A stretch of DNA of 49,714 bases from a virus (Duplodnaviria > Heunggongvirae > Uroviricota > Caudoviricetes). The position numbers were made by a program, and so were the translations under genes. The notes under the pieces are model-generated. The model saw only the letters and a program-made list of their open reading frames with translations. It was not told the DNA's origin and made no database searches. The stretch lies in IMG/VR virus record IMGVR_UViG_643348544_000005; one strand, written 5' to 3'. Below, one piece after another: positions 1,132-49,714 of the stretch. Every line of letters starts with the position of its first letter. Within the stretch, counting starts at the first letter, position 1.

Positions 1132-1357
1132 CTTCCAGTATCCTCTTCAAAGCAGGGTGATCTGTGGCGATCACCTCCGGCTTGTTTACCATTCCTACAA
1201 AGCGAGCTTGCGGATCCACTCGCCAGCGTCTTCCAACTTTTTTGGGGAGAGGAAATATCATTCCGGCTTTAGCGTATTTACTTAACGTACTCGGAGTAGG
1301 GACCGGTTCACTGAATTCCTCTTTTGCCCACTCAGTGAGCAGAATAAGTCTTGCCAT
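1109..1357 (-). CDS. xis: Excisionase-like small DNA-binding protein
   Basis: 82-aa ORF immediately upstream of and overlapping int on the same strand; small basic protein (…KKVGRRWRVDPQ…); assignment mainly by position. Confidence 0.6.
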   Translation of the reverse strand: MARLILLTEWAKEEFSEPVPTPSTLSKYAKAGMIFPLPKKVGRRWRVDPQARFVGMVNKPEVIATDHPALKRILEDGAPAKI

Positions 1358-1421
1358 GAGCGTCGTTCGCTAATCATGGTCGCCGCCACTATAGCTGGTG
1401 GGCAACGACCGGGGTTGAACA

Positions 1422-3893
1422 TTAAAAATCAGCCTGATTCGGGATCAGTTTTTGCCAGATAGTTGAAACGTATTTTGCCTGGTAACGGGCATCATCCAGC
1501 GCATTGTGGCGCTCACCTTCGAATGGAATAGCCGCCCTGGCATCGAAGTCCATGGCTTTTCCCAGCTCAACGATTGTGCGTACATCGCGATCGTTGTAGT
1601 AACGCCACGGGCAGGGGATCCCCTGCCGTTCGTATGAACGGCGCAAAATCGTGTTGTCGAAGTTGGCTCCATTTCCCCAGACCTGAACAAAAAATTCGCC
1701 GGAGTTTTCGTCGATAAATTCCCGCAATTGCAGCAGTGCATCATCTAACGGGATTTCATCGGTCAGAATGGCAGATTGCGCCTCCCGTGATTGCTTAAGC
1801 CACCATTTAATGGTGCCACGATCAATGACTCCGCCAGCAGTATCCATATCGATGGTCTTACTAAATTCCGGCCCCATATCTCCGGTTTGCGGATCGAAAA
1901 ATATTGCACCTATTGAGATAAGCGGGGCATCGGGATTTTTTCCCATGGTTTCAAGGTCGATCATCATGTGGTGCCACATTCTGCTGGTGGATGTGATTTC
2001 TTGATGACCGTTCACCTTAATTGAGTGATCTGCCGTCTCGCCAGTTTCATTATCGCTATCGTGATGCTGATTGCCGCCAGTGTTCTCCTTGTGTGGATGT
2101 TCAGCGCCTTCCATTTCCTCCGGATCATCTTCCTGAACTTCAGGCTGATACTCTTCATCGAATGTTTCCTGGTATGTTGCGTCGCCCATTACCGCGCCAC
2201 AATCAGGGCAGTTGCCGCCGCCGGTCTGACCGCAGGCGGTGCAGACTTTTTCCACTTCCTGTTGCGCCACTGATTCAGGCTGTTTCGTTTCTGGCTCGTT
2301 TTGTAACGCATTTGGGCTGTTTTGTTCCGCTTTCTGGTCGTTCTGTTCCGTTTCTTGCTGGTTCTGGTTCACAGAATCGCGGGTCTGGTTCCCCTTAACC
2401 CATTTCGGATCATTCGGGTCGCTAATCCCTTCAACAAATTCACCACGTGATACTGCAAGCAGTTCATCGGCGTCAGGCTGGCTGATATTGGCTGCCTGCA
2501 TAATTTTGTTTACTTCGTCAGCGGTAACTTTTACTGGCTCTGGTTGTGCGGTCGTGTCAGATGCACCAGTATTTTGTTGTGAACCTGAGTATGTACCGTT
2601 TTTACGTGCGAAGTATTCCTCTTTTGTGATTTCCGTAGCTCCCAGGGCCAGTGCTTTTTCCAGACCAGAAAGTTTGTTTGCGCGACCGTATTTTTCGCCG
2701 TCCTTATCGGTGAAGAGGAAGTAGAACGGCCCCTCACGCTCTACAGATGGTTCGACTTCCACTTTGCATTCGGTTTTTTCGTTGCCCGGAATTGCCGTTT
2801 CCACTGCATCAGTTTCTGGTACTGGCGACGAGAGAGTATCAGTTGCGCTCTGATTTCTTCCTTCATCTTCAAACACGCCCTTTGTAGTCAGGTATTCAGT
2901 AATGTATTTGTTCAGTGCCACAGGGTCTTTGTGAATGTCGATCGGACGTTCACGGACAAGGCCAAAAATAGTCTGGCGGTCGTAGCGAAGGGCATCAGGC
3001 TGTTTGCGCATTGATGCCGAGATACGCTTCCAGTCTTCGCGGTCGTTGTCGATAACTTCATTTTTTGCCCAGCGATGGATGCTGCCGTCAATGTTTCCGG
3101 CATCCACATCACCAGGCCAGAGAGCGTAGGCCAGTTCGTCATCCAGTGTTTTCCATGTCTGCTTGTATTCGCGATGAATGGCAGCAATGACCGGGCTGAT
3201 TTTTCCTGTTGAATTTTCACTGTGCTGTTGATTGGTTCTGGCGCGGGCGAGATCAACAACAGACGTGTATTTTCCGGTTTCCTTGCGTTCACCTTCGCGA
3301 CGTTTTTTCCAGATGCGCATCTCTGCCTGAATTTCGGGCCATTTGGCACCAGGCTTACATTTATGCTTAACCCACCCGATGGCATGCAGCTTAAGCTCCG
3401 GATACATGGCGTTAACTTCTGGCATTTTCATCAACGCTTCAACGATATGTCCGTCGAATGTTGCCATGTCTTCCTGCAACAATTCCTGTGCGCTAATAAC
3501 CATATCAACGGTGATGTTTTCACATGTGTCGAACTTAACCATGACAGCGTTCTGTACTTCAGGGGCCAGCTTGTCAAAAGTGACGTTCATCGGATCGGAT
3601 TCAGTCTCAACCGGGACAAAGGAAGCAGACTCCTCATCCCAGCGGTTTTCCTGCATATATTCAGCATCCCAGGAATCGAGGGCAGGGCGGGGTATACCGG
3701 GTTTATCCTCGCAGACAAGAAATTTATAAGCGCAGTCCTGAGCAGCCGGATAATGCTCCAGGAATTGCCAGTGAAATTTTGCGCGGGCGCGACGTTCATC
3801 ACCGGCTTCAATGGCAGTGGCTACAGCGACGGCACCTTCTTCCTTTATTGCCTGTTCGTCCGGAATGGCGGCGCAAATAAAGACTTTACTCAT
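1422..3893 (-). CDS. Large prophage exonuclease-family protein (C-terminal DnaQ-like 3'-5' exonuclease domain)
   Basis: 823-aa ORF, ATG at 3891-3893; C-terminal segment …HMMIDLETMG…FDNTILRR…HNALDDARY… resembles DEDDh exonuclease motifs; central CxxC…CxxC cluster (…CTACGQTGGGNCPDCG…). Confidence 0.75.
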   Translation of the reverse strand: MSKVFICAAIPDEQAIKEEGAVAVATAIEAGDERRARAKFHWQFLEHYPAAQDCAYKFLVCEDKPGIPRPALDSWDAEYMQENRWDEESASFVPVETESDPMNVTFDKLAPEVQNAVMVKFDTCENITVDMVISAQELLQEDMATFDGHIVEALMKMPEVNAMYPELKLHAIGWVKHKCKPGAKWPEIQAEMRIWKKRREGERKETGKYTSVVDLARARTNQQHSENSTGKISPVIAAIHREYKQTWKTLDDELAYALWPGDVDAGNIDGSIHRWAKNEVIDNDREDWKRISASMRKQPDALRYDRQTIFGLVRERPIDIHKDPVALNKYITEYLTTKGVFEDEGRNQSATDTLSSPVPETDAVETAIPGNEKTECKVEVEPSVEREGPFYFLFTDKDGEKYGRANKLSGLEKALALGATEITKEEYFARKNGTYSGSQQNTGASDTTAQPEPVKVTADEVNKIMQAANISQPDADELLAVSRGEFVEGISDPNDPKWVKGNQTRDSVNQNQQETEQNDQKAEQNSPNALQNEPETKQPESVAQQEVEKVCTACGQTGGGNCPDCGAVMGDATYQETFDEEYQPEVQEDDPEEMEGAEHPHKENTGGNQHHDSDNETGETADHSIKVNGHQEITSTSRMWHHMMIDLETMGKNPDAPLISIGAIFFDPQTGDMGPEFSKTIDMDTAGGVIDRGTIKWWLKQSREAQSAILTDEIPLDDALLQLREFIDENSGEFFVQVWGNGANFDNTILRRSYERQGIPCPWRYYNDRDVRTIVELGKAMDFDARAAIPFEGERHNALDDARYQAKYVSTIWQKLIPNQADF

Positions 3894-3985
3894 TTTGTTT
3901 TACCTCATTACAGATTTAAGGGTGAACAAATCCCTGCCATTGCTGGCATATAAGAATGAAACCGGATATTTATTACGGAACTGTT

Positions 3986-9585: not shown

Positions 9586-9899
9586 TTGTCGATTTAGCAA
9601 AACAGAGAATGCTTTGAAAGTTTCACCGAGAAATATTTATTGTGAACCTCCTTATTGTTTATCGACTTTTACTCTCCGCTCATTGCAGTACTGTCGGAGA
9701 AGGCTACTATGTACAAGAAGCAGCTAACATAAGCGAGCATCACTATTGATATTAGGAAGAGTATATAAAAACTTCATGCTGAACCTTACAAAAGTAGGTA
9801 AACCGGCAATGGCCTAAGTGGCAGGGTCATGTTGATCCGGCACTGCCGAGCTAATAATTAACAAGCAAATCACTCTTTCTAATAATTTGTTGAAATAAA

Positions 9900-10559
9900 C
9901 TAAATATGTATATGTTTACCAACAACCACATATGAACTACCTGCTTTGCTCCATGATTTTATTATTTCTAAATTATTATCTGAGCATATTTTACTTACAG
10001 TATCCACATCTAATAAACCATAGTAGAAAGCATTACGAGAGTTTTGGTATATATACCCATGCAAATGTTTAATACCGCTCTCGTACCTCTTGAAATAAGA
10101 ACTTTTGTATTGATTGACAATCAGTGCTTCACCATCACTCTTTAATAATTCTCTAATCGCACTGAGGACTTTGTGAATTGTGGATTCACATGGAATTGCG
10201 GAAAGCACGTTTGCGCAAAGTATGAAATCATAATGATTTGTTATTTTATCTATATTTTCATAAGAAACAATATTAGCATTCTTATAGTTATTTATCACGT
10301 AATCTGGAATCGTGGTTTGTACACCTCTGATAATTTGCACTCTTTCTAGTTGTCTTCTGGAATCTAAAAATGTCACAGTTTCAAATTTATTTACTAATTG
10401 TTCTGAATATCTAAGTTTTCCACATCCAAAATCAAGGGCATTGCCATTTTTATTAGTGCTTTCAATCTGTTTACAGAGATAGTTAGATGGCATAGTGTGC
10501 GGTTTCGCTGCATTTTCTGAACGTATGTTTATTCCATTTATTTTGTAATTCAAAATCAA
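9900..10559 (-). CDS. Class I SAM-dependent methyltransferase
   Basis: 219-aa ORF (track start is TTG at 10559; alternative ATG at 10493); glycine-rich SAM motif …ALDFGCGKLRY… followed by acidic …VTFLDSR…; begins 7 bp after the stop of the upstream membrane-protein gene. Confidence 0.65.
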   Translation of the reverse strand: MILNYKINGINIRSENAAKPHTMPSNYLCKQIESTNKNGNALDFGCGKLRYSEQLVNKFETVTFLDSRRQLERVQIIRGVQTTIPDYVINNYKNANIVSYENIDKITNHYDFILCANVLSAIPCESTIHKVLSAIRELLKSDGEALIVNQYKSSYFKRYESGIKHLHGYIYQNSRNAFYYGLLDVDTVSKICSDNNLEIIKSWSKAGSSYVVVGKHIHI

Positions 10560-43874: not shown

Positions 43875-44474
43875 ATGCGTAAAGTTTGTGCAGTCATTTT
43901 GTCCGCAGCCATCTGTCTGTCCGTATCCGGTGCGCCTGCATGGGCGTCTGAACATCAGTTCACACTGAGCGCGGGGTATCTTCATGCCCGTACGAACGCT
44001 CCCGGCAGTGATAATCTGAACGGGATTAACGTGAAATACCGTTATGAGTTTACGGACGCGCTGGGGCTGATTACGTCCTTCAGTTATGCCAATGCTGAGG
44101 ATGAGCAAAAAACGCACTACAGCGATACCCGCTGGCATGAAGATTCCGTGCGTAACCGCTGGTTCAGCGTGATGGCGGGGCCGTCTGTACGCGTGAATGA
44201 ATGGTTCAGCGCGTATTCGATGGCGGGTGTGGCTTACAGCCGTGTGTCGACTTTCTCCGGGGATTATCTCCGCGTAACTGACAACAAGGGGAAAACGCAC
44301 GATGTGCTGACCGGAAGTGATGACGGTCGCCACAGCAACACGTCTCTGGCGTGGGGGGCTGGCGTGCAGTTTAACCCGACCGAATCCGTGACCATTGACC
44401 TTGCTTATGAAGGTTCCGGTAGTGGCGACTGGCGAACGGATGCATTTATTGTTGGTATCGGATACCGTTTCTGA
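43875..44474 (+). CDS. lom: Lom/Ail-family outer membrane protein
   Basis: 199 aa with signal peptide; C-terminal …DLAYEGSGSGDWRTDAFIVGIGYRF matches lambda Lom. Confidence 0.85.
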   Translation: MRKVCAVILSAAICLSVSGAPAWASEHQFTLSAGYLHARTNAPGSDNLNGINVKYRYEFTDALGLITSFSYANAEDEQKTHYSDTRWHEDSVRNRWFSVMAGPSVRVNEWFSAYSMAGVAYSRVSTFSGDYLRVTDNKGKTHDVLTGSDDGRHSNTSLAWGAGVQFNPTESVTIDLAYEGSGSGDWRTDAFIVGIGYRF

Positions 44475-44625: not shown

Positions 44626-47600
44626 ATGACAGTAAAAATTTCTGGCGTGCTTAAAGATGGCACAGGAAAACCAGTACAGAACTGCACCATTGTGCTGAAG
44701 GCCAGACGAACCAGCAGCACGGTGGTGGTGAACACGGTGGCCTCTGAAAATCCGGATGAAGCCGGACGTTACAGCATGGATGTTGAGCATGGTCAGTACA
44801 GCGTCACCCTGCTGGTTGAAGGTTTTCCGCCTTCACATGCCGGGACCATTACCGTCTATGAAGGTTCCAGACCAGGTACGCTGAATGATTTTCTCGGTGC
44901 CATGACGGAGGATGATGTCCGACCGGAGGCACTGCGCCGCTTTGAGCAGATGGTGGAAGAGGTGTCACGTAACGCCTCCGCGGTTGCACAGAATACGGCA
45001 GCCGCGAAAAAATCAGCCAGCGATGCCAGTGCATCAGCCAGCGAGGCGGCAACTCATGCAACCGATGCTGCAGCCTCAGCACGTGCCGCCAGCACGTCAG
45101 CCGGACAGGCCGCGTCGTCGGCTCAGTCAGCGTCTTCCAGCGCAGGAACGGCATCGACAAAGGCCCGTGAAGCAGCAAAAAGTGCTGCTGCTGCAGAGTC
45201 ATCAAAAAGCGCGGCAGCTACCAGCGCCAGTGCCGCGAAAACGTCAGAAACGAATGCCGCAGCATCACAAAAATCGGCAGCCACTTCTGCATCCACAGCG
45301 ACCACGAAGGCGTCAGAAGCTGCCACCTCGGCACGGGGTGCGGCGGCCTCAAAAGAGGCAGCGAAATCTTCAGAAACGAATGCATCATCAAGTGCCAGTA
45401 GTGCAGCTTCCTCGGCAACGGCGGCAGGAAATTCCGCGAAGGCGGCAAAGACGTCCGAGACGAACGCCAGGTCTTCTGAAACGGCAGCGGGACAGAGTGC
45501 CTCAGCTGCGGCAGGCTCAAAAACAGCGGCTGCATCATCTGCCAGTGCCGCGTCAACAAGTGCCGGGCAGGCCTCAGCCAGTGCCACCGCCGCCGGAAAA
45601 TCGGCAGAAAGCGCCGCATCATCCGCTTCAACAGCCACAACGAAGGCTGGCAAAGCCACTGAACAGGCCAGTGCAGCAGCAAGGTCTGCTTCCGCAGCGA
45701 AGACATCCGAGACGAACGCGAAAGCGTCGGAAACCAGCGCAGAATCCTCAAAAACGGCTGCCGCATCGTCCGCCAGTTCGGCGGCGTCATCGGCATCATC
45801 GGCGTCAGCTTCAAAAGATGAGGCGACCAGACAGGCGTCAGCAGCGAAGGGCAGCGCCACGACAGCATCCACGAAGGCGACAGAGGCAGCTGGCAGTGCG
45901 ACGGCGGCAGCACAGAGCAAAAGTACGGCGGAATCCGCGGCAACGCGCGCCGAGACAGCGGCAAAACGGGCAGAGGATATTGCATCCGCCGTGGCGCTTG
46001 AGGATGCAAGTACGACGAAAAAGGGGATAGTACAGCTCAGCAGTGCGACCAACAGCACATCTGAAACGCTTGCCGCGACACCGAAGGCAGTTAAAGCAGC
46101 GAATGACAATGCGAATGGCAGGGTACCATCTAACCGAAAAGTTAACGGGAAAGCACTGACTGCGGATATAACATTAACACCGAAAGATATTGGCACTTTA
46201 AATTCAGTAACGATCTCTTTCTCTGGCGGGGCAGGGTGGTTCAAACTGGCAACGGTTACCATGCCACAAGCGAGTTCCATCGTTTACATCGCATTGATTG
46301 GTGGCGCTGGTTACAACGTCGGCTCCCCACAGCAGGCAGGCATTTCAGAACTGGTTCTACGAGCAGGCAATGGAAAGCCCAAAGGGATTACCGGAGCTTT
46401 GTGGAAGCGTACAGCCGTCGGATTAACGAATTTCGCCTGGATCAACACATCCGGCGATACATATGATATTTACGTTGAGATTGGCAATTATGCGACGAGT
46501 GTAAATATCCATTGGGATTGTACTACAAATGCGTCAGTTTCTATTTATACCTCGCCAACATATTCAGCGAGTAAGCCTTCCAGCGTTACCGGTGGTGTTG
46601 TTTATACGATGTATAGCTCACATCAGAAACCTACACCATCAGATATTGGAGCGCTGCCAACGACTGGAGGGACTATTTCAGGTCCGTTGTCTGTTACTGA
46701 TGGGATCACCGGGGCACTGAAGGGGAACGCCGATACCGCGACGAAACTTGCGGCAGCCCCAAAAATTAACGGTGTTAAGTTTGATGGCTCGGCGGATATT
46801 AACCTCACGTCGGAAAATATTGGTGCATTTGCCCGACGTTCGACGGGGGCTTATGCGGATTCGGATGGAGCCGTTCCCTGGAATGCCGAATCAGGCGCTT
46901 ACAATGTCACCCGCTCTGGCGACAGCTATATTCTGGTTAACTTCTATACCGGAGTCGGAAGTTGCCGGACCCTGCAGATGAAGGCGCATTACAGAAATCG
47001 TGGTCTGTTCTACCGTTCTTCAAGAGACGGTTATGGTTTTGAGGAAGACTGGGCAGAAGTTTATACCTCGAAAAATCTTCCACCAGAAAGCTACCCAGTT
47101 GGCGCACCAATCCCGTGGCCATCAGATACCGTTCCGTCTGGTTATGCCCTGATGCAGGGGCAGACTTTTAACAAATCTGCCTACCCGAAACTTGCAGCCG
47201 CTTATCCGTCAGGCGTGATCCCTGATATGCGTGGCTGGACGATTAAGGGCAAACCTGCCAGTGGTCGGGCCGTATTGTCTCAGGAACAGGACGGCATTAA
47301 ATCGCATACCCACAGCGCCAGCGCATCCAGTACGGATTTGGGGACGAAAACCACATCGTCGTTTGATTACGGCACTAAATCCACGAATAACACCGGGGCG
47401 CATACGCACAGTCTGAGTGGCTCTACGGGGTCTGCCGGTGTTCATACTCATGGTAATGGTATTCGTTGGCCAGGAGGCGGCGGTTCTGCGTTAGCATTTT
47501 ATGATGGCGGTGGGTTCACTTATGTCCAGAATTCACAGTATCAAGTAAGCCCGGGGACTTCTTCCTATAGATCGTATTATCAACGTATTCAGACACAGTC

Positions 47601-47796
47601 AGCAGGTGCTCATACCCACTCGCTGTCTGGTACTGCAGCAAGTTCTGGCGCACATGCACATACTGTAGGTATTGGTGCGCATACGCACTCCGTTGCGATT
47701 GGTTCACATGGACACACCATCACCGTTAACGCTGCGGGTAACGCGGAAAACACCGTCAAAAACATCGCATTTAACTATATTGTGAGGCTTGCATAA
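44626..47796 (+). CDS. stf: Side tail fibre protein Stf
   Basis: 1056 aa; N-terminus [28 protein letters not shown]… and C-terminus …[29 protein letters not shown] match lambda Stf; long Ala/Ser-rich low-complexity repeat region. Confidence 0.85.
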
Positions 47797-48380
47797 TGGC
47801 ATTCAGAATGAGTGAACAAGCACGGACCATAAAAATTTATAATCTGCTGGCCGGAACTAATGAATTTATTGGTGAAGGTGACGCATATATTCCGCCTCAT
47901 ACAGGTCTGCCAGCAAACAGTACCGATATTGCACCGCCAGATATTCCGGCTGGCTTTGTGGCTGTTTTCAACAGTGATGAGGCATCGTGGCATCTCGTTG
48001 AAGATCATCGGGGTAAAACGGTTTATGACGTAGCTTCCGGCGACGCGTTATTTATTTCTGAACTCGGCTTATTACCGGAAAATGTTACCTGGTTATCGCC
48101 AGAAGGGGAGTTTCAGAAGTGGAACGGCACAACCTGGGTGAAAGATGCAGAAGCAGAAAAACTGTTCCGGATCCGGGAGGCGGAAGAAACAAAAAACAAC
48201 CTGATGCAGGTAGCCAGTGAGCATATTGCGCCGCTTCAGGATGCTGCAGATCTGGAAATTGCAACGGAGGAAGAAACCTCATTGCTGGAAGCCTGGAAAA
48301 AGTATCGGGTGTTGCTGAACCGTGTTGATACATCAACTGCACCTGATATTGAGTGGCCTACGAACCCTGTCAGGGAGTAA
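47796..48380 (+). CDS. tfa: Tail fibre assembly protein Tfa
   Basis: 194 aa; [54 protein letters not shown]… matches lambda Tfa; start overlaps stf stop (TAATG). Confidence 0.85.
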
Positions 48381-48434
48381 TCATTGGGATTATGCCGCAG
48401 CACGTCTTAAGCAAGAACGTGCTGCGGTTGGATG

Positions 48435-49103
48435 CTATTTTTTCCCTGAAGCGGAAAACATTACTACAGTACCTTGAACCTTGGTTTTAACATTCTCGAA
48501 ATGCTCTGAGAGTATATGTGTTAAGCCTTCTTCGGAATCTTTTGTGTTTGAAAAGATGCCTTTCTGATTGTAAATGCGCATCAGTTTTTGACCGAAGCTA
48601 TTGTGCACAACTCCATCGCCAAGAATTGTGGCTCCGTATAGAGTTCCATCGTCAGTTAAGGCCTGCGCCGCATTGCGTATTACACAGCTTTTTGTAGATA
48701 TATTTCCAGGCAGGCAGTGAAGAAGGTAAAACATGGAAATGGAATCAAATTGACCATGTAACGCCGCGGGATAAGGTTCAAAAACATCATGGCTAATTTT
48801 ATGTTTAATTTTTGATTCCCCAGCCCTTGTAGATGCCGCGTTCAGGCTAGCTTCGTTCAAATCCATTAAAGATATCAGACTACTCTCAGGTACGTGAGTA
48901 AGGTAAAACCCAGTTCCAACACCAATATCCAGATGGTTGTTACCTACATGTTCCAGAAAGTGTGGAAGAAGGTGTTCCTTTGTAGGACATCCCCATGCAA
49001 GCCGATTTGATACTCCCAAAACCCACCAGTCATAAAGCTTTAGGGTAAGTGGTGTGTAAATTTTAGCCCCATCATCTGTGTTTTTTTTCATTGATTTCAC
49101 CAT
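48435..49103 (-). CDS. Class I SAM-dependent methyltransferase (cassette between tfa repeats)
   Basis: 222-aa ORF (ATG 49103; alternative ATG 49091 has better GGTGA SD); SAM motif …HLDIGVGTGFY… and acidic …ISLMDLNE…; AT-rich; opposite strand to tail-fibre genes. Confidence 0.65.
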   Translation of the reverse strand: MVKSMKKNTDDGAKIYTPLTLKLYDWWVLGVSNRLAWGCPTKEHLLPHFLEHVGNNHLDIGVGTGFYLTHVPESSLISLMDLNEASLNAASTRAGESKIKHKISHDVFEPYPAALHGQFDSISMFYLLHCLPGNISTKSCVIRNAAQALTDDGTLYGATILGDGVVHNSFGQKLMRIYNQKGIFSNTKDSEEGLTHILSEHFENVKTKVQGTVVMFSASGKK

Positions 49104-49159
49104 GTTATAGTTTTATTTGTGAATTAAATCAATTATGGCGATGAATTACAAGGGGTTAA

Positions 49160-49429
49160 ATGCTGCCGCAGCATAGCGATATTGAAATAGCCTGGTATGC
49201 TTCGATACAGCAGGAGCCGAATGGCTGGAAGACCGTCACCACACAGTTCTACATCCAGGAATTCAGTGAGTATATTGCGCCACTGCAGGATGCTGTAGAT
49301 CTGGAAATCGCAACGGAGGAAGAAAGATCGTTGCTGGAGGCATGGAATAAATATCGGGTATTGTTGAATCGTGTTGATACATCAACTGCACCTGATATTG
49401 AGTGGCCTGCAAATCCTGTCAGGGAGTAA
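49160..49429 (+). CDS. Tfa C-terminal-domain homologue (short second tail-fibre-assembly-like gene)
   Basis: 89 aa, ATG 49160 with AAGGGG SD; C-terminal 50 aa (…[51 protein letters not shown]) nearly identical to the Tfa C-terminus at 48222-48380. Confidence 0.55.
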
Positions 49430-49543
49430 TCATTGGGATTATGCCGCAGACACGTCGTATGCAGGAACGTGCTGCGGTTAGTTTGTGAGCTTTCGATAGT
49501 GGTTGTTATTTTTGCCCTTATTTGTTCCGGAGGCCATGGTTCA

Positions 49544-49714
49544 ATGGTCCGTCTGCCCCCTGTGGTGATGTCAGCAAAATCAGCCACTGCGCGAACCACA
49601 ATAGCCCGGGAAGATGCTGAAGATCACCAGGTAAAGCTATCAGCGCAGAAACTGGAAGAACTGCTCGCATCAATGGTTAAGGATGAGGTTGATCGCAATG
49701 ATGGGATTTATTGA
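49544..49714 (+). CDS. Hypothetical small protein
   Basis: 56-aa frame MVRLPPVVMSAKSATARTTIAR… from ATG 49544 with GGAGG 10 nt upstream; low support. Confidence 0.25.
   Translation: MVRLPPVVMSAKSATARTTIAREDAEDHQVKLSAQKLEELLASMVKDEVDRNDGIY

Follow-up and report, generated by a model that had tools for sequence, protein, structure and literature searches.

Near its right end, the phage DNA that we analysed very likely holds a joint of the DLP12 type (tfaD-ybcY-tfaX), with a moron methyltransferase gene set between a working tail fibre assembly gene, tfa, and a fossil tfa 3′ end. The layout is already known, being annotated in the DLP12 prophage of E. coli K-12, and the locus is what routine recombination between related prophages leaves behind. 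It carries little weight as a discovery: the layout has stood for decades in the K-12 reference annotation and the copies of the tfa end were described in 2004. It does provide a clean example of a conserved chaperone-domain coding segment acting as the homology handle that moves cargo between prophages.

Organisation of the locus

The window, meaning the whole stretch of 49,714 nucleotides, has a 100% identical counterpart in record NZ_CP042892. The features of the locus, by position in the window, are:

47796..48380, plus strand: tfa, encoding a full-length lambda-type tail fibre assembly protein of 194 aa (Pfam Caudo_TAP, E 4.8e-44; phrog_105)
48139..48337, plus strand: match to Rfam RF02111 (IS009), 225.7 bits, overlapping the coding 3′ third of tfa
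48204..48429, plus strand: repeat copy 1, the last 58 tfa codons and stop, then 49 nt including hairpin 1
48395..48427, no strand assigned: hairpin 1 (CCGCAGCACG...CGTGCTGCGG), folding energy -28.6 kcal/mol, z -4.35
48422..48429, no strand assigned: left junction between tfa/hairpin DNA and the methyltransferase module, with TGCGGT microhomology
48435..49103, minus strand: ybcY-type class I SAM-dependent methyltransferase, an ORF of 222 aa from the first ATG
49104..49159, no strand assigned: divergent intergenic region, for which the motif coordinates of two putative promoters are given below
49160..49429, plus strand: 'tfaX' chimeric ORF of 89 aa, a gp27-like start fused to a tfa 3′ end
49253..49479, plus strand: repeat copy 2, the 3′ part of the ORF at 49160-49429 and hairpin 2
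49444..49477, no strand assigned: hairpin 2, with one additional A in the 5′ arm, folding energy -24.1 kcal/mol, z -2.1
49526..49714, plus strand, continuing beyond the window end: DUF4376 pseudogene fragment (PGAP annotation of the identical record)

The tfa gene, annotated as a tail fiber assembly protein in NZ_CP042892, is full length and lies behind a complete stf. The DUF4376 fragment is 99-99.6% identical in prophage alleles that lack the methyltransferase cassette (cassette-free, or empty, alleles), and the genome downstream of it holds a truncated ompW attachment site.

The two copies of the tfa 3′ end

A preliminary description of this DNA had proposed that the tfa 3′ end and the hairpin behind it recur as a direct repeat, to be checked by dot-plot and alignment. 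The alignment shows that the repeat is real: the two copies (226 and 227 nt) are 88.5% identical over 227 aligned columns, a similarity far above chance (BLAST E 5e-80), and the sole indel is 1 nt in the 5′ arm of the hairpin. The copies had been placed at ~48222-48449 and ~49263-49490, which is 10-20 nt too far to the right, and the proposed length of ~210 bp with ~50 shared tfa codons becomes about 226 nt with 58 codons in each copy.

The coding parts of the copies differ mostly at synonymous positions, with a dS of 0.41, a dN of 0.074 and a dN/dS of 0.18, the last resting on a small count of 22 differences. This indicates that the copies diverged as working genes in separate lineages and so come from two different tfa alleles. 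Copy 2 is itself a hybrid. Positions 49253-49384 resemble DLP12-type tfaX, being 99.2% identical to that of PhiR26_1 against 85-88% for the empty alleles, while positions 49385-49479 resemble the cassette-free prophages and are 100% identical to their tfa end and hairpin.

These patterns bear on whether one phage recently duplicated its tfa 3′ end in tandem and only then gained the methyltransferase. The equal orientation of the copies and their equal end points at the hairpin are what such a duplication would leave. However, synonymous-biased differences at 88.5% identity are not those of a recent duplication, copy 2 starts at a fusion to an unrelated gene and not at a duplication boundary, and the part of copy 2 that is 100% identical to the cassette-free tfa end is only 93.6% identical to copy 1. 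We therefore rejected tandem duplication, which is almost certainly wrong, on the substitution pattern and the chimeric boundary of copy 2. The preliminary description had named a recent duplication, together with a methyltransferase that is a core gene in relatives, as the outcome that would overturn it; what we found is a divergence unlike that of a recent duplication and a gene absent in some relatives.

Hairpins and the match to IS009

The hairpins that had been described are GC-rich and stable, but their supposed role as terminators is not established, as a canonical U-tract directly past the stem is absent at both hairpins on either strand. A scan for intrinsic terminators found none at hairpin 1 on either strand and a partial 5-bp match at hairpin 2. 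Hairpin 1 keeps adjoining the methyltransferase gene 3′ end where the upstream neighbour differs: in O157:H7 F1273 and ETEC4088 homology resumes at 48389 and 48395, at the hairpin, past unrelated upstream DNA.

The repeats might instead each represent a small RNA gene, IS009 of Rfam, with the hairpin as its terminator. The RF02111 match is above the gathering score in copy 1, and a second match at 49183-49386 reaches 112.5 bits, just under the gathering score of 117; K-12 tfaD also matches this family. The stem-loop of hairpin 1 fits the 3′ hairpin consensus of Rfam CssrB as well, but overall CssrB scores 32.6 bits, below its gathering score of 76. The IS009 match falls inside the tfa reading frame and is thus no proof of RNA function, the IS009 consensus is mostly unpaired, and the synonymous bias between the copies indicates protein-coding constraint. 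A small RNA origin is consequently very improbable, and we treat the repeats as tfa ends.

Origin of the insert

The unique segment between the repeats is 823 bp long (48430-49252), and side-by-side sequences show microhomology at both junctions. Citrobacter freundii L024 has nucleotide homology to the window over exactly 48423-49246. In that strain a gp27-like gene (80 aa) followed by a umuD-like gene runs divergently from a methyltransferase gene followed by dinI, and the methyltransferase has 90% amino acid identity to that of the window. In HK140, dinI runs divergently from gp27 and a umuD-like gene, immediately past the tail fibre gene.

The 823-bp segment would thus be a piece of an accessory module which, when intact, would have methyltransferase and dinI running one way and the gp27-like and umuD-like genes the other, normally just past the tail-fibre genes. 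An illegitimate joint at the TGCGGT microhomology may have put the 3′ end of the methyltransferase gene beside the tfa hairpin, and a second illegitimate crossover at CAGG may have joined the gp27-like gene, at codon ~31, to another phage's tfa at codon ~137. The outcome would be two tfa 3′-end copies from two different alleles. The complete copy 2 seen in the window may be the ancestral state, from which the DLP12 and K-12 forms were truncated later (at 49384 and 49406); alternatively, a DLP12-type cassette may have recombined at a later time with a cassette-free prophage to give it. The similarity pattern of copy 2 fits both orders of events.

Distribution and movement of the cassette

Of 5426 complete E. 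coli genomes, 3831 (71%) have the methyltransferase gene; junction probes detected the left junction in 3073 genomes and the right in 3439. As the same two junctions are common to so many genomes, they point to one old event and not to repeated capture. The survey of relatives that had been suggested found the tfa-methyltransferase-tfa arrangement to be the annotated K-12 DLP12 layout, widespread in E. coli.

The methyltransferase had been described as a cargo gene, and its distribution supports this over a core gene. Lambda has tfa and the hairpin once, without the methyltransferase; the same ompW-integrated prophage occurs in 20 E. coli genomes with the order tfa, hairpin, DUF4376 fragment and no cassette; and phage Ayreon has a clean deletion scar at the cassette position. 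The 20 alleles without a cassette may predate it or may result from its deletion. Breakpoints vary among K-12, PhiR26_1, 2G7b, O157:H7, ETEC4088 and 23AR0806, which, like the hybrid copy 2, speaks for recombination at these segments.

The proposal that recombination at tfa 3′ ends shuffles the cassette is supported by published work. The C-terminal domain of tail-fibre chaperones is a conserved trimerisation domain (PMC9608196). As the tfa end encodes this domain, it is about 85-100% identical among many lambdoid prophages and offers a site for homologous recombination. Poteete et al. (2004) had already noted both tfa-end copies of DLP12, and by junction PCR they found lambda Red recombinants whose types were set by tfa homologues, including both DLP12 copies (PMC545071). 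A crossover at either copy would carry the cassette to a new tail-fibre module or right arm, and one between the two copies would delete it.

The divergent spacer and the tfaX reading frame

The spacer between the methyltransferase and 'tfaX' holds a putative methyltransferase promoter (TTGATT-17-TATAAC, 49132-49104, minus strand), whose predicted -10 hexamer abuts the first ATG, and a putative plus-strand promoter (ATGGCG-15-TTAAAT, 49135-49161). A promoter scan found sites no more numerous than in shuffled sequence. The K-12 ybcY/tfaX spacer was recovered by genomic SELEX with RpoD holoenzyme and carries an H-NS mark (PMC3946193); the ybcY hexamers of the K-12 spacer are those present in the window. 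The region upstream of the methyltransferase is also partly conserved in an Enterobacter chromosomal homologue. We infer that the methyltransferase has its own putative sigma-70 promoter region, bound by H-NS in K-12.

The short ORF at 49160-49429 had been described with its own Shine-Dalgarno sequence; the coordinates are exact and the sequence is AAGGGG. Its codons 1-31 (49160-49252) are of gp27-like (phrog_3893) origin and codons 32-89 (49253-49426), with the stop (49427-49429), come from a tfa 3′ end. Against PHROGs it matches phrog_2341, an 88-aa family, over its full length and phrog_3893 over residues 3-37. Intact gp27-like relatives of 79-80 aa occur in a Klebsiella phage, HK140 and Citrobacter. 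Caudo_TAP covers only profile positions 75-130 of 131, so the N-terminal fibre-binding domain is absent, and PGAP calls only a tfa pseudogene without N-terminus, at 49253-49429. As the insert matches the Citrobacter module including its gp27-like gene, 'tfaX' is a chimera and not a spare chaperone, and its label 'tail fiber assembly protein' should be corrected to a gp27-like gene start fused to a tfa end.

This argues against the suggestion of a swappable tfa module, as the ~31 leading codons belong to the unrelated 79-80-aa family and 'tfaX' decays differently in different prophages. A stop cuts it short in K-12, a frameshift interrupts it in 2G7b, it runs into unrelated sequence as a fusion in PhiR26_1 and O157:H7, and strain 23AR0806 lacks the tfa-derived 3′ part, with homology ending at 49186. 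The same decay weighs on the idea that 'tfaX' works as an alternative or auxiliary chaperone, or as a trimerisation-domain-only product interfering with the chaperones of superinfecting phages. Such a role could draw on the good Shine-Dalgarno and intact 89-aa frame in the window, the whole conserved C-terminal domain, the end-to-end match to phrog_2341, the junction retained in 3439 genomes and RNA polymerase binding at the K-12 spacer (PMC3946193). However, the fibre-binding domain is missing, the N-terminus comes from an unrelated gene, and the putative plus-strand -10 overlaps the ATG, so that transcription from this promoter would leave out the start codon. We consider a working 'tfaX' very unlikely; it is better read as a fossil.

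The methyltransferase

The AT-rich class I SAM methyltransferase gene noticed on the opposite strand was recovered by the profile search: Pfam Methyltransf_12 scores 37.5 bits against a cut-off of 30, and Methyltransf_23, _25 and _11 are likewise above their cut-offs. Its G+C content is 41-43%, compared with about 50% in the flanking stf and tfa. The true start is likely to be the ATG at 49091 (M5, giving 218 aa), which has GGTGA upstream. The glycine-rich SAM-binding motif I and the alternating strand/helix fold are present, and structure prediction gave a confident model. The top fold matches listed for this model are all small-molecule or lipid methyltransferases, headed in Foldseek by a bacterial phosphatidylethanolamine N-methyltransferase, and the profile matches in PDB are JHAMT and UbiG. 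From this predicted structure the protein resembles small-molecule and not DNA methyltransferases.

The absence of a DPPY/NPPY-type motif had also been pointed out, and it holds: by eye, [DNS]PP[YFW] does not occur in the 222-aa translation, Pfam and NCBIfam searches returned no DNA-methyltransferase family, and no protein described as a DNA methyltransferase is among the listed fold matches. A DNA methyltransferase was rejected on these grounds. A defence system was rejected as well, with no usable PADLOC match; the best profile was mad2 (E 0.009, 12.9 bits), with no stretch passing alone.

The gene adjoins tail-fibre genes, and DNA methyltransferases are frequent in phages, both of which could suggest a phage DNA-modification or anti-restriction enzyme, or a modifier of the tail fibre. 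Besides the missing motif and families and the lack of a meaningful PADLOC match, several observations speak against this. The gene runs opposite to the late operon, and its close homologues stand alone on chromosomes, away from phages. Where decay has reduced the prophage to int'-tfa'-methyltransferase-ompT, the gene keeps its annotation as an intact CDS, and the plaque-forming phage Ayreon has lost it. Modification of DNA or fibre is thus extremely unlikely. In Enterobacter, Salmonella and Yersinia the homologues (56-65% identity) each occur as a single gene in a chromosomal setting that is not phage, and the methyltransferase gene of the window may derive from this family of stand-alone Enterobacterales genes. 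As their neighbours differ by genus, gene context is uninformative on the substrate. We found no functional study in the literature on ybcY, tfaX or moron methyltransferases. Most likely the enzyme acts in the lysogen on a cellular metabolite, lipid or xenobiotic, and not on DNA or the tail fibre.

As a methyltransferase gene of E. coli, ybcY is very common, and the annotation shows an intact CDS in each non-K-12 genome sampled. The dN/dS between E. coli copies is about 0.2, from a small count (13 differences), which suggests purifying selection. Its 71% presence, the intact annotation there and in the decayed prophage, and this dN/dS, with a broken copy in K-12, would be consistent with a domesticated enzyme that benefits the host, although we regard this as very unlikely. 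The top Foldseek match of the model suggests that such an enzyme could methylate a membrane lipid or other metabolite. E. coli biochemistry was established in K-12; if ybcY is domesticated, its chemistry in natural isolates would have been missed there, and the flanking tfa homology would let it hop between lambdoid prophages by homologous recombination.

Comparison with known systems

The closest known system is K-12 DLP12, where tfaD (b0561), ybcY (b0562) and tfaX (b0563) have the same order, orientation and both junctions as the window and are 96.7% identical to positions 47942-49406 over 1465 nt, with 99% identity between ybcY and the methyltransferase gene of the window. K-12 has ybcY as a pseudogene of 667 nt, a tfaX that a stop shortens to 61 aa and a tfaD missing part of its 5′ end, with appY next in line. 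In the window, by contrast, the methyltransferase frame is unbroken, the tfa gene has its full length and is preceded by a complete stf, and copy 2 extends through a second hairpin. The prophage sites differ too, being ompW here and argU for DLP12. The ~200-bp segment of the lambda tfa C-terminal third described by Poteete et al. 2004 is the repeat found here; that study treated the copies as recombination targets and did not address the methyltransferase or the chimeric second copy (PMC545071).

The duplicated 3′ ends of tail-fibre and chaperone genes lying side by side recall the invertible tail-fibre segments. In those systems (Mu G/Gin, P1 C/Cin, e14 Pin) inverted repeats and an adjacent serine invertase switch host range. 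Here, unlike in the Gin, Cin and Pin systems, the repeats are direct and the second copy is a fossil, and the stretch from tfa to the ompW attachment site contains no recombinase ORF.

The moron concept (Hendrix/Juhala) describes an extra gene with its own expression signals, lower G+C and variable presence, such as lom and bor. The cassette is similar in being present or absent among close relatives at one position (lambda, the 20 alleles, Ayreon), in its G+C of 41-43% against about 50% in the flanks, and in placing the methyltransferase in the slot and orientation of dinI in HK140 and mEp460. For an own promoter there are the K-12 SELEX peak and the hexamers, with a scan not above shuffled background, and for an own terminator a hairpin without U-tract. 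The cassette differs from the classical examples in its product, a predicted small-molecule-type methyltransferase.

The prophage right arm

The window ends in the right arm of a lambdoid prophage, with the order lom, stf, tfa. The record NZ_CP042892 matches it at 100% identity over the 1.9 kb queried (47796-49714) and continues beyond it into a DUF4376 pseudogene fragment, a truncated ompW, then yciE, yciF, yciG and the trp operon. These flanks place the prophage in ompW and the methyltransferase cassette at its right end.

Features of the right arm (window coordinates)
43875-44474, lom
44626-47796, stf, the side tail fibre gene, 1056 aa
47796-48380, tfa, the tail fibre assembly gene, 194 aa
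48395-48427, hairpin 1, folding at -28.6 kcal/mol
48435-49103, minus strand, methyltransferase ORF, 222 aa; Pfam Methyltransf_12, _23, _25 and _11, all above cut-offs
49160-49429, plus strand, second, short ORF (tfaX)
49444-49477, hairpin 2, folding at -24.1 kcal/mol
49526-49714, DUF4376 pseudogene fragment with an internal stop, 3' of the right repeat and running past the window end (9731-10000 in the compared locus L001)

The N-terminal third of stf (45000-46100, plus strand) is filled with degenerate alanine/serine-rich repeats spaced at multiples of 21 nt (families D1, D3 and D4). The 45-aa 'hypothetical protein' that PGAP calls in identical genomes (48353-48490, plus strand) is probably spurious; its coordinates overlap those of the tfa stop, of hairpin 1 and of the methyltransferase 3' end.

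Two diverged tfa ends

The direct repeat of the tfa 3' end and hairpin claimed in the preliminary description is real, its coordinates there being 10-20 nt off: 48204-48429 (copy 1) and 49253-49479 (copy 2) are 88.5% identical with one 1-nt indel (E 5e-80). Each copy comprises the final 58 codons and stop of the tfa frame, then a GC-rich hairpin. As no U-tract directly follows either stem on either strand, calling the hairpins terminators is an inference. The stem-loop of hairpin 1 fits the consensus for the 3' hairpin in the CssrB model, the overall score (32.6 vs 76) falling far under threshold.

Over the 58 common codons 19 differ, 11 synonymously and 8 non-synonymously. The Nei-Gojobori estimates (dS 0.41, dN 0.074, dN/dS 0.18, from small counts) reject a recent duplication as the source of the repeat. 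Small as the counts are, this is the pattern of two alleles that stayed functional while diverging in separate phages, rather than of one copy that drifted in situ. Both copies also match Rfam RF02111 (IS009) on the plus strand, at 48139-48337 with 225.7 bits and at 49183-49386 with 112.5 bits, the latter just under the gathering score of 117; K-12 tfaD matches as well. The match falls inside the tfa frame, where the substitution pattern shows coding constraint. In effect, what the family models appears to be conserved coding sequence, the 3' third of tfa, and not an RNA structure.

The methyltransferase

Profile searches identify the minus-strand ORF as a class I SAM methyltransferase. Its G+C content is 41-43%, against about 50% in stf and tfa. 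The annotated start is probably wrong and the protein 218 aa long, judging from the alignments: 20 of 21 aligned homologues and phrog_2132 start at the fifth residue, and GGTGA stands just before the ATG of that residue (49091). The ORF's first ATG (49103) adjoins the -10 hexamer of a predicted promoter, TTGATT-17-TATAAC (49132-49104, minus strand); a simple promoter scan gave no more sites than its shuffled background. The corresponding K-12 spacer, with the same hexamers, was recovered in genomic SELEX with RpoD holoenzyme and carries an H-NS mark (PMC3946193).

The family is widespread in Enterobacterales. Members at 56-65% identity are single chromosomal genes in non-phage surroundings, with neighbours that differ among Enterobacter, Salmonella and Yersinia, and the prophage copy shares part of its upstream region with the Enterobacter gene. 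The phage gene thus looks like a captured host-type gene.

The AlphaFold2 model is confident (pLDDT 88.4). Its best Foldseek matches in the PDB, at TM about 0.6 and 13-21% identity, are phosphatidylethanolamine N-methyltransferase, juvenile-hormone acid methyltransferase (JHAMT), NodS, polyketide C-methyltransferase domains and RebM; a profile search of the PDB reaches JHAMT and UbiG only. None of the listed fold matches is described as a DNA methyltransferase, and the translation, read by eye, lacks [DNS]PP[YFW], in agreement with the earlier observation that DPPY/NPPY-type motifs are absent. PADLOC gave no usable match, and our literature search found no functional study of ybcY, as the gene is named in K-12. 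Most differences among the E. coli copies are synonymous (13 differences from strain 23AR0806, dN/dS about 0.2). Where decay has reduced the prophage to int'-tfa'-methyltransferase-ompT, annotation still shows an intact methyltransferase CDS. Our best estimate is a small-molecule or lipid methyltransferase that would act in the lysogen.

Origin of the insert

The unique DNA between the repeats holds the methyltransferase ORF, a 56-nt spacer and the opening 31 codons of the second ORF. Only the last 56 residues of that ORF match the tail-fibre-assembly profile (positions 75-130 of 131), while its opening 31-37 or so residues match phrog_3893, whose members are 79-80 aa long. On these matches it is not a tfa gene. 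Full-length members of phrog_3893 occur in a Klebsiella phage and in HK140, where divergent dinI and gp27, the latter followed by a umuD-like gene, lie immediately 3' of the tail fibre gene.

Decisive here is a Citrobacter freundii locus (L024, 4307-5996), which carries what looks like the donor-type configuration: a full-length gp27-like gene (80 aa) leading to a umuD-like gene and, divergently, the methyltransferase (90% amino acid identity) leading to dinI. Its nucleotide homology to the window, 48423-49246 at 91.8%, coincides almost exactly with the unique DNA (48430-49252), which indicates that the insert is a fragment of this accessory module, comprising the methyltransferase gene, the divergent spacer and the opening 31 or so codons of the gp27-like gene. 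The Citrobacter module, itself intact, is found close to purB, and no obvious complete prophage surrounds it.

Short microhomologies, TGCGGT at the hairpin/methyltransferase joint and CAGG at the switch from the gp27-like to the tfa frame, are of a kind typical of illegitimate recombination. In the simplest history, one illegitimate joint would have put the 3' end of the methyltransferase gene beside the tfa hairpin of a donor phage, and the second tfa end would have come from an illegitimate crossover that joined the gp27-like gene of the donor to the tfa of a second phage.

The second ORF is in decay. In K-12 a stop leaves 61 aa, in 2G7b it is frameshifted, in PhiR26_1 and O157:H7 the ORF runs after 49384 into unrelated sequence, and in 23AR0806 homology stops at 49186 and the tfa-derived 3' part is gone. 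A predicted plus-strand -10 hexamer, TTAAAT (ending at 49161), overlaps its ATG at 49160, so a transcript from that promoter would lack the start codon. Given this decay and overlap, a spare or swappable chaperone is unlikely. The 'swappable tfa module' first suggested is not supported for an ORF that is only part tfa, has a phrog_3893 N-terminus and is decaying across relatives. That tfaX serves as a trimerisation-domain decoy is conceivable, yet nothing supports it.

Gain, loss and recombination at the tfa end

Tail fibre assembly proteins are modular (PMC9608196, citing North et al. 2019): fibre binding falls to a variable N-terminal domain, trimerisation to a helical C-terminal domain that is conserved. 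The repeat encodes this trimerising domain, hence its high identity across prophages. Breakpoints, taken as the limits of each record's homology to the window, vary between records.

Extent of homology to the window
K-12: 47942-49406
PhiR26_1: up to 49384
2G7b: 48260-49384, behind a different fibre module
O157:H7 F1273: tfa stops at 48359; 2.8 kb of other cargo; homology again from 48389
ETEC4088: from 48395, after pin-ydfK-ynaM
23AR0806: 48264-49186, then ompT

Hairpin 1 remains with the methyltransferase gene in O157:H7 F1273 and ETEC4088, and by this pattern is probably the 3' end of that gene. The F1273 block (about 1163-3953 of locus L013), a second cargo at the same joint, lies between tfa and hairpin 1/methyltransferase and encodes a manganese catalase, two ferritin-like proteins and a general stress protein (yciGFE-katN-like). 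Its products are annotated like the yciE, yciF and yciG flanking the ompW site of the window prophage.

Copy 2 is hybrid in its similarities. Its first part (49253-49384) is 99.2% identical to DLP12/PhiR26 tfaX vs 85-88% to alleles of ompW prophages without the cassette; the rest (49385-49479) is 100% identical to these cassette-free alleles, and 49480-49714 is 99-99.6% identical to them. The DUF4376 fragment likewise shows 99-99.6% identity to its counterpart in cassette-free prophages, and beyond the window comes the truncated ompW attachment site. The hybrid pattern fits two orders of events. In one, the complete copy 2 would be ancestral and would have been truncated later, and independently, in the K-12 (49406) and PhiR26 (49384) forms. 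In the other, recombination of a DLP12-type cassette with an ompW prophage lacking it would have produced the window.

Probing with a synthetic sequence of the predicted deletion product picked out 20 genomes that have hairpin 2 and the DUF4376 fragment directly after tfa; in each of the three inspected, ompW holds the same J-lom-stf-tfa prophage, cassette-free. In phage Ayreon (L017, 3780-4110), a tfa fragment, hairpin 1 and the final 40 or so nt of the methyltransferase gene are joined straight to about 49133 of the window, in the spacer, after which comes a gp27-like start that is diverged and truncated. This joint is a precise deletion scar of the methyltransferase. Together, the 20 genomes and the Ayreon scar indicate that the cassette has been both gained and lost in nature. 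The captured cargo gene proposed in the preliminary description is broadly upheld.

Relation to DLP12

The same arrangement exists in the cryptic prophage DLP12 of K-12 MG1655 as tfaD (b0561), ybcY (b0562, a pseudogene) and tfaX (b0563), 96.7% identical to 47942-49406 of the window. It is also found in sequenced phages (PhiR26_1, 2G7b, ev243, Turner, Kati and others), one record naming the gene 'putative uncharacterized protein YbcY'. Among 5426 complete E. coli genomes, 3831 carry the methyltransferase gene at a nucleotide identity of at least 95%, making ybcY a very common methyltransferase of E. coli. The left junction (probe 48300-48500: tfa end, hairpin and 3' end of the methyltransferase gene) is found in 3073 and the right junction (probe 49180-49380) in 3439. 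As these probes reach 80% coverage only with sequence from both sides of a junction, both junctions are common to well over half of sequenced E. coli, which argues for one old event that has since spread, not for repeated capture.

Poteete et al. (2004) defined Red recombinant types by the tfa homologues, both DLP12 copies among them, and looked for these types by junction PCR (PMC545071), so both the repeats and their ability to recombine were already on record. The structure in the window is the long-annotated tfaD-ybcY-tfaX joint of DLP12, and how its repeats recombine has been in print since 2004. What we add to the existing annotation is incremental: tfaX as a chimera, a donor module of Citrobacter type, and alleles that lack the cassette or bear its scar.
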